Positions 9,061-38,244 of a stretch of DNA of 64,000 bases are shown here, piece by piece; position 1 is the first letter of the stretch; each line of letters starts with the position of its first letter. Where the stretch lies: assembly GCA_963767735.1 (NCBI GenBank), contig CAVYES010000005.1:512001-576000 (forward strand), given 5' to 3'. Origin of the DNA: Candidatus Bathyarchaeota archaeon. Its GTDB lineage: Archaea; Thermoproteota; Bathyarchaeia; Bathyarchaeales; Bathycorpusculaceae. The notes below the pieces were generated by a model, which worked only from the letters and a program-made list of their open reading frames with translations, ran no database searches and was not told the origin of the DNA. Both the position numbers and the translations under genes were made by a program.

Positions 9061-9218
9061 ACTCCGAAACGGAAAGCAACATTTTTCAACGCCATTAAAC
9101 AGAAAGAAACGCTGTTAAACAGAAAGAAACGCTGCTAAACGGAAAAGAACGCAGAAAAACGCAACCTGCAAATGTTCCTAACCCTGAATCAAAAAAGCAG
9201 ACAGAAACGCAAAGAACA
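9061..9218 (+). repeat. Array-plus-core element, copy A
   Basis: Ten consecutive 10-mers ending in AAC (9061-9160), then core CAACCTGCAAATGTTCCTAACCCTGAATCAAAAAAGCAG...AGAACA (9162-9218). Confidence 0.8.
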
Positions 9219-9302
9219 AAATCTTAGACCAAGACAAACTAAAAGCGCACTGAGAAACATTTAAGAAATAAGAAACAACCTGTAAAGAGCCCGAGACGGC
9301 TG

Positions 9303-11828: not shown

Positions 11829-12068
11829 TTGGAATCCTCACGAATCTATATCTCTTCTATACTCGAACTCTCCACATTTAAACCTTATCTAGCATGAGCG
11901 GCGTTCTATTAGTTTGCTTAGGTTAAGTTAACTTTGAGCTTGAACGCGGTTGTCGAACTTTATTGATTTAAAGGTGCGTCTAACGGGTTGCTTAAAGATC
12001 AAGTGCATTGGTGATTGCGCTTTTTATCAGGTATTTTTTTCCGATCCTAAGTACGTTTAGCGAACTTC

Positions 12069-12310
12069 TATAAAGCTTGCTTTGGGTTGTTTTTTTGGTT
12101 TAGGGTTTGAATTGTTTGCAGGTTGCGTACACAGAAGGACACAGAAGGATAAGGAAGGGCAAGCGAGGCAAAAAAAGTATTTCATGCAGAACTGTTGCGT
12201 CGCCACTGATCTGGTTGTTTTGGGCTGCTTTTTTGATTCAGGACTTGGATTGTTTGCAGGTTGAGTTAATAAAAGTCGGTAAAAGTCGAATAAAGTTGAT
12301 AAAGGAGTCG
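12069..12310 (-). repeat. Two tandem array-plus-core elements (copies B and C)
   Basis: Minus-strand cores at 12125-12069 and 12263-12207; 10-mer arrays at 12126-12170 (acagaaggac-type) and 12264-12310 (aaaagtcggt-type). Confidence 0.8.
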
Positions 12311-13705: not shown

Positions 13706-15201
<1,496 letters not shown>

Positions 15202-34546: not shown

Positions 34547-34604
34547 ACATGGCAAGAGAGAATAATATATTCCATATTTATGTTCTCATTGCAACTAGTT
34601 CTCC

Positions 34605-35153
34605 AAAAAAGCAACCCAAAACAACCAGAACAATAATTAAAAAAAACTAAAAACTCGAAGATCCACACGCCTTAAAAAAACTAATCAGCAAACTTTTCGT
34701 CACTTTCCTTTACTTTTCCTTACTTTTCGTTACTTTCTGTTACTTTTCCTTACTCAACCTTCAAACGTGTTAAAGCCTAAACAACAAGAACGCATAGCGT
34801 CCGAAATTTGCCGCAAAACTACTTGGAGCGACTCTTCAATAATCCGGCACAATTTGGCACAAATTTACACAAAAATGCACACAACCTGCAAACGAATTGA
34901 GCCCTAAACGAAAAAAGCAACCCAAAACAACCAGAACAGTCAAGCAGCACTTACAAACGTTATATTCTCTTCAAAAAGGCGCAAAAGGACACAGAAATAC
35001 ATTCTGCTACACTTCGCTACGTTCTGCTACATTTGTGTACGCGATTATTTGCGATTAAACGCGATTATTCTCGATTATTTGCGATTATTCTAGATTCTAC
35101 CTGCAAGCAATTTAAGCCCTAAACGAAAAAATCAACCCAAAACACAAATTTTC
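34605..35153 (+). repeat. Cluster of four array-plus-core elements (copies D-G)
   Basis: Cores at 34605-34632 (3' half), 34755, 34882-34938 and 35097-35153; 10-mer arrays at 34691-34750, 34841-34880 and 34981-35096. Confidence 0.85.
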
Positions 35154-35242
35154 CGCAAGGCGCCCCTGTTAAATGACAACACAACGTCGGTGTTCAACCC
35201 CAACGATTACAAAAGAATAATTAGCGTCAGTGTCGGGTTATC

Positions 35243-38200
35243 CTAATTGCGAAACTTCTCCCTCAACCAATGCCTTACATCGTAGAAGGATATGTTTCTG
35301 TGTGGGCAGGCCGAAACGCAGTTCCCGTCTCCAATGCATTTGTAGTTTCTGAACTCGCCCTTTGCAGCGAATTCCGCCGGTTGACCTGTTAGCCCCAGGG
35401 GGCAGATCTTCGAGCAGTCCTTTGTCGTGCAGCTGCTGCAAAGCGCCTTGTCCTTCACCTTTAGCCTAAACAACCCAGCTCGGGATATGAGCTGGTTGAA
35501 AGCTCCCCAGCCGCACATGCCAGTTGAGACGCAGCCATACGTCCCGACAAAGGGAATCATCAGCCAGATAACGTACCACAGAAAACCGAAGTAGAACATG
35601 TACAGGAAGTAGGCGGGATCCATGCCGAAGACGGAGATTCCTAAAATTCCTACAGATGCCAAGTACGATAGTAAAGCTGCAGCCAGTAGTGAGATCCACA
35701 CCGCCGATACGACTACCTTATAGGCCGATGATATCTTGTTTGTGTGTAGCCTGCAAGAAAGCTTGGATGTTCCGCTACATGAGCTCATGGCATCTATGGT
35801 CGTTCCCTGGTACATGAGGGGAGCCATGCATGCTACAGAGCAGAGTTGCCTGCTGCCGAAAAGAAAGGAAAGGATACCACTGATCAGAAATGTGCCGAGC
35901 AACGCCACTACTACGGTTGAAGCTATGGCACCTGAGCTGCCTATCCCAGATGCCCAGCCTAGCCACGGGGTCTGCCTAAGGACGTTGAACGGGATTACGA
36001 ATATGGGAAGGAGTATACTGTATGCGCCGTAAGCGAGAATCAAAAGCAGGAGCCTTACCTTAGTTTCGAGTTCCCGTGTATACTTGATTCTGAAGGCTAC
36101 AAGCGCGCCCATCTCTATGCCCATCATTATCAGGTACCACGGAGACATGGTTATTCTGGTGAAGAACATGATGAAATTGAAAAAGCCCGCACTTAGGGCA
36201 TTCACAAAGGACCCTGCCGTAGAGGCAAACATCATCATATTGAAAAAGCCTGCGCCATACACCTGGATGTCCAAGACTCCGCCCATGAAGAACTCTGCCA
36301 CGAAAAGGAGCCCCAGGAAACCGAAGACCCAATACGGCTTTGCTTGCCAACTTGTGGATTTGGATGAAACAAGTCTTCTTTCGTCCAGCACGATTCCGAA
36401 GTACACCACCATTTCGGCTATTATGGATAGTACGAAGACTGTGGCGTCACCGTTGAGAAGCCAGATGAACTGGCCCGCCATCATCAACGCATAGGCCAGC
36501 ATGAGGAAGAGCAGATAGTTCAGGATGCCTGAACTGGTGGTCCGATTTTTATAAAGGAACTCAAAGACGTAGATGAAAAGAAAAACCATCACGGCGCTGC
36601 CCGCAACCAGGGAGATGTTGGTCCAGAGAGAGTTGCCAATCGCTGTGGGAGACAGAATCATTATGATGGTTTGACATGCCATGATCCAGATGAGTGGCTT
36701 TGGCAGCCTACCTCTTATGAAGAAAAGCGTTATTCCCATCTCGGCGGACATCATGAAGATGAACCAGAAGGAGCTCATAGCGTGAATAAGGGCTAAATAG
36801 ACCCATTGTAGACCGCTAGAAATCGATACTGTACCGCCAAGCAGCGCAAAGGTCCAACCCATGAACACCTCAGAAAGGATGACCAAGGCGATGATCGACG
36901 CAATCAAAATAAGTCTGATGTTGCCCACCTTATCCTTCAGAAGGCTATCGTTTCCCCGCGTGTTGCAAAAAGAGTGGCGGCAGCTGTGACGCCCGCCACC
37001 GCCAAGTTAATGGCTACCAGATCAACGAGTGTAACTGATGGTTGGACGTAGAGGTAGACGACTGTGCTGATGAACGTCGTAGCTATCATTGAGAGGAGGA
37101 AGAGCACTATGCCAGCGTCGATTAAGGTCTTGATTTCCGAGCCTTTTTTGATGAGCCATGCCGTGAAGACAGTCATCGTTCCAACGTAAAAGCCTGCGCT
37201 CAATATTCGCGTAAGTGGCCACGTTGTTGACGCAGATATGATTCCATTGAAAAAGCCTTGGCCGAACACCTGGATGGCCATGACCCCGCTCATAAAGAAC
37301 TCTACCACGAATATGAGAAAGAGGAAGCTAAAGACCCAGTACGGCATTGACTGCCAACTTACCGATTTGGAAGAAATAAGCTTCTTTTCGTCTAATACTA
37401 TTCCGAAGTACACCACCATCTCGACTATTATGGATAAGACAAAAACTGCGGCGTCGCCGTTAAGAAGCCAGATGAACTGGCCCGCCATCATCAACGCATA
37501 GGCCAGCATGAGGAAGAGCAGATAGTTCAGGATACCTTTGCTTAAGGTCTGATTCTTATGCAGGAACTTGAAGATGTATATGAACAGAAAAGTCATGATG
37601 GCGCTGCCGACAGCCAGAGAGACGCCAGCCCAAACAGAGTTGATAATCGCGGTTGGAGAAAGGACCATTATAATTAATTGAGACGCAATTAGCCAGCTAA
37701 ATGCTTTCGGCAGTTTGTCTCTGATGAAAAAAAGTGTGATTGCCATTTCGGCAGAGTTCATGAAGATGAACCAGAAAGAACTCGAAGAGTTTGTTAACGT
37801 GGTGAAAATTCCTTGGAGACCGCCAGCCGTGGATGCAGTTCCCCCGATGAGTGCAAAGGTCCAGGCCATGAATACCTCCGACAGGAGAACCAAGGCGACG
37901 ATCAACGCAATTATTAAGGACCTTACCCGCACAATGCCGGATACAGTTTCATCCAAGGTCTTGGGTTCATCAAATATATACAAAATAGCGAAAGCGAAGC
38001 CTATGACCATCATCGCAAACATGTTTATCAATATTATTTCGAAGAGCGCTGTTGGAAAGTAGAAGTAAGGTACAATACTGATAGCCATCTCAGCCATCAT
38101 CGAGAGGAGGAAGAGCACTATCCAAGCTTCCTTCGGAGCCTTGATTTCCGAGCCCTTCTTGACAAGCCATGCCGCGAAGACAGCCATCAATCCTTCGAGT

Positions 38201-38244
38201 ATCCAGATGGGAATTAGAGTAGCAAAACCCAAGTCCTTCACCAA
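35243..38244 (-). CDS. ~1000-aa polytopic membrane protein with duplicated module and C-terminal NapH/CcoG-like 4Fe-4S domain (split near 36950)
   Basis: ORFs 36937-38244 and 35243-36928 join with one added base; CSVAC, CSSCTTKDCSKICP and CIGDGNCVSACP motifs. Confidence 0.75.

Follow-up and report, generated by a model that had tools for sequence, protein, structure and literature searches.

The window analysed here, a 64,000-nucleotide stretch of the genome of a Candidatus Bathyarchaeota archaeon, carries on its forward strand a cluster of repeat modules, one of which, copy G, consists of two successive 10-bp arrays and a conserved core. The distal block (34998..35042, +) comprises four TACATTCTGC-type units and then TACGC, reading TACATTCTGC TACACTTCGC TACGTTCTGC TACATTTGTG TACGC, and its boxes are shifted 5 nt from the phase that prevails in the family. 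The 55-nt proximal block (35043..35097, +) comprises five GATTATTTGC-type units and then GATTC, reading GATTATTTGC GATTAAACGC GATTATTCTC GATTATTTGC GATTATTCTA GATTC, with GAT boxes that match the family phase. The core (35095..35155, +; nhmmer E 2e-13) reads (T)ACCTGCAAGC... from 35098, directly 3' of GATTC, and its 5' and 3' blocks are (T)ACCTGCAA and AAAAAATCAACCCAAAACA, respectively. That two 10-bp arrays follow one another in copy G had been read from the letters in the initial annotation, and Tandem Repeats Finder recovers both, the distal one at 34998-35033 (period 10, 3.6 copies, score 49) and the proximal one at 35040-35090 (period 10, 5.1 copies, score 67). On the distal side copy G is bordered by a left flank common to TACATT-type and stacked copies (34941..34997, +), which has a TATA-like TTATAT. 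The middle module of the cluster (34841..34940, +) has a CACAATTTGG-type array at 34841-34879 and a core from 34880 (E 6e-13), and the first module (34692..34800, +) has a ACTTTTCCTT-type array at 34692-34754 (period 10, 6.3 copies) and a degenerate core. A lone core 3' half, AAAAAAGCAACCCAAAACAACCAGAACA (34604..34632, +), is identical to 34911-34938.

Three further family copies lie elsewhere in the window: one with an AACGC-type array of period 10/20 (9088..9220, +; core from 9160, E 2e-12), one with a CGACTTTTAT-type array (12205..12306, -; core from 12265, E 4e-15), and copy B, whose GTCCTTCTGT-type array ends in TGTGTACGC (12067..12170, -; core from 12127, E 4e-12). The window has an archaeal 16S rRNA gene at 13706-15201 (-) and no 23S gene next to it; two cassette copies stand about 1.4-1.6 kb downstream of the 16S gene. 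Two adjacent paralogous genes with ORFs of 561 and 435 aa (35243-36928 and 36937-38244, both -) give rise to DNA repeats at 1007-1011 bp spacing with 74-82% identity, and the same pair occurs in another genome (G009). At Rfam gathering thresholds the 16S rRNA gene is the sole match in the window and the elements have none, and ARAGORN found no tRNA.

A family profile built from the five window cores retrieves 86 copies at E<1e-3 from the 3.04-Mb genome, or 120 if the limit is relaxed to E<10. The 86 copies are grouped in 61 clusters, each with between one and three modules 150-215 bp apart. The core is present in 11 of the 18 other species of the genus searched and in 0/12 genomes of other families of the order, and more than 110 exact core-pattern stretches found elsewhere belong almost all to Bathyarchaeota MAGs (Candidatus Bathyarchaeota or Bathyarchaeia records). 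Judged from these searches, the copy G element is a member of a Bathyarchaeia-specific family. Two records fall outside the group: a family member whose contig bears the label Acidoferrum (L085), perhaps through misbinning, and an exact pattern match in a Bacteroidetes MAG (L033), which has no array and looks like a chance occurrence. Literature on Bathyarchaeia intergenic repeats and on archaeal MITEs or 10-bp repeats yielded no published description of the cassette among the matches listed.

The anatomy of the cassette is a conserved core of about 60 nt preceded by an array of 4-14 boxes of the form G-A/T-C plus an A/T run, and a 10-bp array stands before nearly all core copies. Both invariant core blocks contain GCAACC, a direct repeat 36 bp apart (profile positions 1-6 and 37-42; in the window, for example, 34881-34886 and 34917-34922). 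The complement of the core ends in an invariant T6, and in several species the core lies 42-170 nt past the stop codon of a co-directional gene, a position that would fit a terminator or insulator; that the core is so highly conserved suggests that it may also be a specific binding site. No conserved ORF lies 3' of the core in this genome or in the other species. A role as promoter or terminator of the neighbouring genes was considered and rejected because the crude ORF context has no strict orientation.

The arrays keep a period of ten. Across 194 copies the mean self-identity is 0.52 at lag 10, 0.49 at lag 20 and 0.45 at lag 30, against 0.26-0.30 at non-multiples of 10; 165 of these copies score best at a lag of 10, 20 or 30. 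Unit-to-unit spacing is exactly 10 in 834/870 steps, and in 612/646 steps of arrays with 3.2 mismatches per unit pair, counts that are somewhat biased toward 10 by a spacing parser that penalises shifts. The units themselves are diverse, 152 arrays yielding 36 unit types, and across these types only the dinucleotide AC (0.66, 1.06 bits) and the A/T positions that follow it are conserved, the other unit positions carrying 0.06-0.21 bits and the spacer positions 0.06-0.14 bits; common descent could be part of the reason why AC recurs in every unit. The register of the boxes to the core is also fixed, with 666 of 1211 xAC starts at one offset. The boxes are thus tandem direct repeats at a centre-to-centre spacing of about 10 bp, the arrangement of a MraZ-type operator.

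The motif to the left of many arrays belongs to a 92-aa gene on the opposite strand, of which it encodes the N-terminus (MPLT.KV.F...). A reading of the motif as the C-terminus of an upstream gene was rejected, since no long ORF ends there. This genome holds three intact and about ten truncated copies of the gene, and a core lies within 260 nt of 12 of the 15 tblastn hits of the protein. Across the genus, 29 loci were compared, from this genome and 23 other species. In 24 of the 29 the 92-aa gene has a divergent core 49-195 nt upstream of its start codon, with the array between the two; of the remaining five, four have a degenerate core-like sequence by eye and one (L162) is without. A TATA-like box (CTTAAGTATAAG, or A/T-rich distal units) precedes the ATG of the 92-aa gene by about 25-40 nt, and TTTATA, TAAATA and like TATA-type hexamers are the most enriched upstream of the genes of this genome. 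At one locus upstream of the 92-aa gene (L170, G051:C6) the array consists in large part of about 17 perfect CCCGTT hexamers in a row and breaks the 10-bp rule, with a 6-bp period and a lag-10 identity of 0.19.

All 56 homologs of the 92-aa protein are unnamed or hypothetical, and the sole taxon-labelled one is from Bathyarchaeota. Three of the proteins match no Pfam or NCBIfam family at E<=1, except for a sub-threshold fn3_3 match (E 0.13) on one. An AlphaFold (AF2) model (pLDDT 87.8) is a single-chain barrel of two beta-beta-alpha-beta halves that superposes on PhS018 (PDB 2GLW): VIA-align gives Z 12.0 and an rmsd of 2.0 A over 84 aa, with the next match at Z 6.8, and Foldseek gives TM 0.74 at E 1e-4. 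At the sequence level the profile E for 2glw is 0.12 and the identity only 18-19%. MraZ chains match the 92-aa protein weakly (VIA Z 5.3, in the range of generic barrels; profile E 0.26-0.34), and in Foldseek the MraZ chains, including those in MraZ-promoter complexes, reach a probability of 0.97-0.99 at TM about 0.5. On the strength of the model, the 92-aa protein is a PhS018-like barrel within the AbrB/MazE/MraZ superfamily. Barrels of the PhS018 type figure in discussions of barrel evolution as a link from the swapped-hairpin to the double-psi fold; among the matches listed, the swapped-hairpin literature gave no DNA target for PhS018. In the portion of the literature consulted on the Pyrococcus horikoshii protein, PhS018 is predicted to recognise DNA and has no known function and no known DNA target (PMC4333400).

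The stack of two array types in copy G has close counterparts. The same TACATT/GCGATT stack occurs in four near-identical paralogs (C5:547095, which is copy G, C4:8469, C7:338522 and C3:122335) that are 98-100% identical over 123-124 nt, an identity from which it follows that the stack arose once and was then copied. Related stacked copies lack two TACATT units (C6:446478) or have two TACATT-like units (C4:549509), and 80 genomes of the genus yielded no further GCGATT/TACATT stack. Stand-alone TACATT arrays (C6:573497, C2:67631 and C7:342848) have a left flank in common with copy G and end ...tacattt[gc]tgTACGC, followed directly by A[AG]CCT of the core, so the GCGATT block occupies the exact TACGC-core junction of stand-alone TACATT elements. 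The initial annotation had noticed that the distal array of copy G ends in the sequence that enters the core at copy B, and this is indeed so: TGTGTACGC lies at 35034-42, and at copy B the 9-mer runs into AACCTGC (12127, -). The 9-mer is not rare: base composition predicts about 18 occurrences in the genome, and 17 are found. Since 8 of the 17 lie at array-core junctions and 3 at the TACATT-GCGATT junction, the match reflects homology and not chance.

Between TACGC and the core, 10 of 11 copies have a block of 25, 55 or 65 nt and the remaining copy has one of 56 nt, and it is because an inserted block has a length of 10n+5 nt that the TACATT boxes stand half a turn (5 nt) off the family register. 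Five GCGATT arrays lie behind other flanks, four of them directly after a remnant of the 92-aa gene and the fifth (C9:19467) after the core of another module. GCGATT-like units without a TACATT block also occur in G039 (L134) and at L085, which makes the GCGATT type older than the stack. The simplest history, reconstructed from these junctions, would be that two cassette types were joined at a common TACGC and the product was then copied. A different kind of stack is present in another species: comparison of L054 and L034 with L030 and L020 reveals two CGACTTTTTC units and then a GTACTTCCTT-type module, the CGACTTTTTC units of L054 and L034 standing directly before the GTACTTCCTT-type flank and array, with one core after them. 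This arrangement gives the appearance of two tandem modules from which the intervening core was lost.

These junctions bear on the proposal, made in the initial annotation, that units are added beside the core and push older ones outward, in the manner of growth at the leader end of a CRISPR array. The position it assigned to the GCGATT array, at a former core boundary, is borne out by the TACATT-core junction of the stand-alone elements; the unit-by-unit addition that it supposed there is not, since additions of whole 10-bp units would have kept the TACATT boxes in phase and the block is 10n+5 nt long. Polar growth is further contradicted by length differences between close copies: in 40 groups, 48 unit-multiple indels were counted (a few of them in flanks). 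Only 2 of these allow a placement within 2 nt of the core, and the other 46 have no possible position at the edge; the nearest distance at which an indel could lie has a median of 33 nt. The core-proximal unit is mostly a distinct, conserved variant, such as gacacatttctagc or atattttaat, that differs from the repeated unit, and perfect repeats sit between the conserved core-proximal and distal-most variants. On these comparisons, arrays change length mainly in their interior. In addition, the stack is common to copied paralogs, GCGATT-like units exist without a TACATT block, and orthologous arrays of different species stay at 7-8 units.

The divergence gradient that the same proposal predicts was found in a weak form. 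Units 1-5 agree with the array consensus at an identity of 8.3/10 and units 7-10 at 7.2-7.5, and the most similar adjacent pair is core-proximal in 39.3 of 148 arrays against 27.7 expected; additionally, in 7 of the 27 arrays with a perfect pair that pair lies at the core edge. Part of the gradient is an artefact, because the parser stops arrays where similarity fails, and stronger constraint near the core would explain it equally well. Directional growth at the core edge is largely refuted, and we regard it as very improbable. Downstream of the 561-aa neighbour gene no core is present in the distant orthologs of G014 and G015 (67-69% identity), and in G009 the contig ends inside the ortholog. 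Among contig pieces from four DNA runs, those that cover 34903-35097 and 34900-35144 have no unit-sized indel, the pieces being short and fragmented and possibly derived from paralogs or from the source sample.

Most cassettes are orphans. In this genome the 92-aa gene or a remnant lies beside the array in only 12 of the 61 clusters, and elsewhere, among 102 loci whose flanks were long enough, 13 have the gene or its N-terminal part, the control strand giving 0 in both cases. The orientation of cassettes relative to their neighbours is near random (downstream same/opposite 54/32, upstream 44/42), which leaves a regulon role for the orphan cassettes unsupported. Some subfamilies are discrete repeats of 250-380 bp, and the TTGAC and GGATA subfamilies have ends that are GCGCGC or resemble the IS inverted repeat GCGCGCTGCCTTGTC; no IS-like ends were seen around the copy G cluster. 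The genome has at least 7 copies of a 1112-bp IS5-like IS encoding a 341-aa transposase (DDE_Tnp_1 + DUF772). Its inverted ends read GCGCGCTG[CG]CTTGTC (L180, G000:C5:15924-17035, with at least 6 further copies in G000), and a 182-bp end-to-end derivative abuts some cassettes, for example at C6:516864-517045.

The account that we favour, with a confidence somewhat above even, is that the element is a cis-regulatory operator cassette of the 92-aa gene that has multiplied to mostly orphan copies, and that the stack of copy G is a copied hybrid. The native site of the cassette would be directly upstream of, and divergent from, the 92-aa gene. There, copies of the 92-aa protein, or of another factor, may occupy one box after another along a single face of the DNA, and this predicted binding would take place beside the TATA box of the gene, much as MraZ binds GTG(G/T)-N6 boxes; the 92-aa protein itself would be the most likely binder of the arrays. 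The 6-7 spacer bases would drift freely and be homogenised by slippage or unequal exchange, a combination that accounts for many unit types with a single period. From its native site the cassette would have multiplied to 86 copies in 61 clusters, most of them without the gene, and part of this spread may have proceeded via ends resembling the inverted repeats of the 1.1-kb IS5-like element. In copy G, a TACATT-type array may have been joined at TACGC to a GCGATT-type array and its core, whether by recombination, by deletion within a tandem pair or by insertion, and the hybrid then copied to at least four loci.

The features that speak of spread could also be read without any function: the arrays would be minisatellites in a selfish, MITE-like repeat, their period and AC inherited and kept by concerted evolution, and the link to the 92-aa gene would mark only the place of origin. 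Such a history would fit the mostly orphan copies in random orientation, the discrete, IS-like ends of some subfamilies, the turnover of unit types among species and a copy number that changes by internal slippage. It sits less well with a period of exactly 10 despite a unit divergence of about 32%, with conservation confined, across the 36 types, to the box positions, with a fixed register to the core and with the retention of the cassette upstream of the 92-aa gene across the genus, and we consider it unlikely, though worth keeping in view. Phased A/T tracts could alternatively act as curved or chromatin-positioning DNA that binds histones or nucleoid proteins without sequence-specific recognition, as the A/T runs at +3 to +5 of most units and their 10-bp period would allow. 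Several unit types (for example GACACATCCC and GACGCGTAGT) nevertheless lack A/T tracts, the most conserved feature is the AC dinucleotide, and the association is with one specific gene family, all of which makes this reading improbable.

A role in RNA, as a small RNA made from the core or as a repeat-bearing leader, is about as improbable as curvature. TATA-like sequences after several arrays on the gene-sense strand and the invariant T6 of the core complement, a possible archaeal terminator, would suit it, but the elements match no Rfam family, a hairpin is visible by eye in one core variant only, and A-rich and T-rich unit types occupy the same box phase, for which DNA shape is the better fit. 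The operator account can also be carried further than we would readily follow it: the PhS018-like protein would polymerise from the core on phase-locked box arrays, and the cassette would be a portable operator that spreads by itself and sets up tens of binding platforms around the chromosomes of Bathyarchaeia. We give this extension a rather low probability; if true, it would represent a new archaeal system that silences genes or organises chromosomes, and it would give the PhS018 fold its first function.

Returning to the operator cassette, what we infer is a helical-phase box operator of an AbrB/MazE/MraZ-superfamily protein, its binding predicted, that has spread as an interspersed repeat family. 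If this is correct, the PhS018-type barrel gains a candidate DNA target and a gene context, and the MraZ-like logic of one box per helical turn would extend to archaea. The arrays also form a natural series (4-14 boxes, 36 spacer types, in-phase and half-turn-shifted) for tests of cooperative binding, and the family would illustrate how a putative control region can give rise to interspersed repeats, its modules being shuffled along the way.

Among known systems the closest in design is the MraZ operator, which, in the part of the literature consulted, consists of GTG(G/T) boxes set six spacer nucleotides apart upstream of mraZ itself and is bound cooperatively, one subunit per box (PMC12957436). 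The cassette resembles it in having direct-repeat boxes one helical turn apart upstream of the gene of its presumed regulator (24/29 loci here), and in that this regulator belongs to the AbrB/MazE/MraZ barrel superfamily. The two differ in that the 92-aa protein is not MraZ (it has no Pfam match, where MraZ has two MraZ domains, and reaches only VIA Z 5.3), and in that the cassette box is G-A/T-C, with 4-14 boxes as opposed to 3-4. Moreover, whole 10-bp units are homogenised in the cassette and a conserved 60-nt core adjoins the array, and whereas the MraZ operator belongs to the bacterial dcw operon, the cassette is found in an archaeon with tens of orphan copies. PhS018 (2GLW) shares with the 92-aa protein its length of 92 aa and the single-chain barrel (Z 12.0, rmsd 2.0 A, 84 residues), although the identity between them is only 18-19% and the profile E 0.12.

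As in CRISPR arrays, a conserved flank adjoins a tandem array, but the cassette units are contiguous, without unique spacers, and repeat every 10 bp; their number changes in the interior, and no polarity of acquisition was seen. Pneumococcal BOX elements are modular intergenic repeats, as are MITEs that contain internal tandem repeats. Like these, the cassettes are interspersed and intergenic, combine a conserved module with a variable number of short tandem units and in some cases have transposon-like ends. Unlike them, the cassettes have a period that equals the helical repeat of DNA, boxes that are phase-locked to the core and an ancestral position that appears to be the control region of one gene family.
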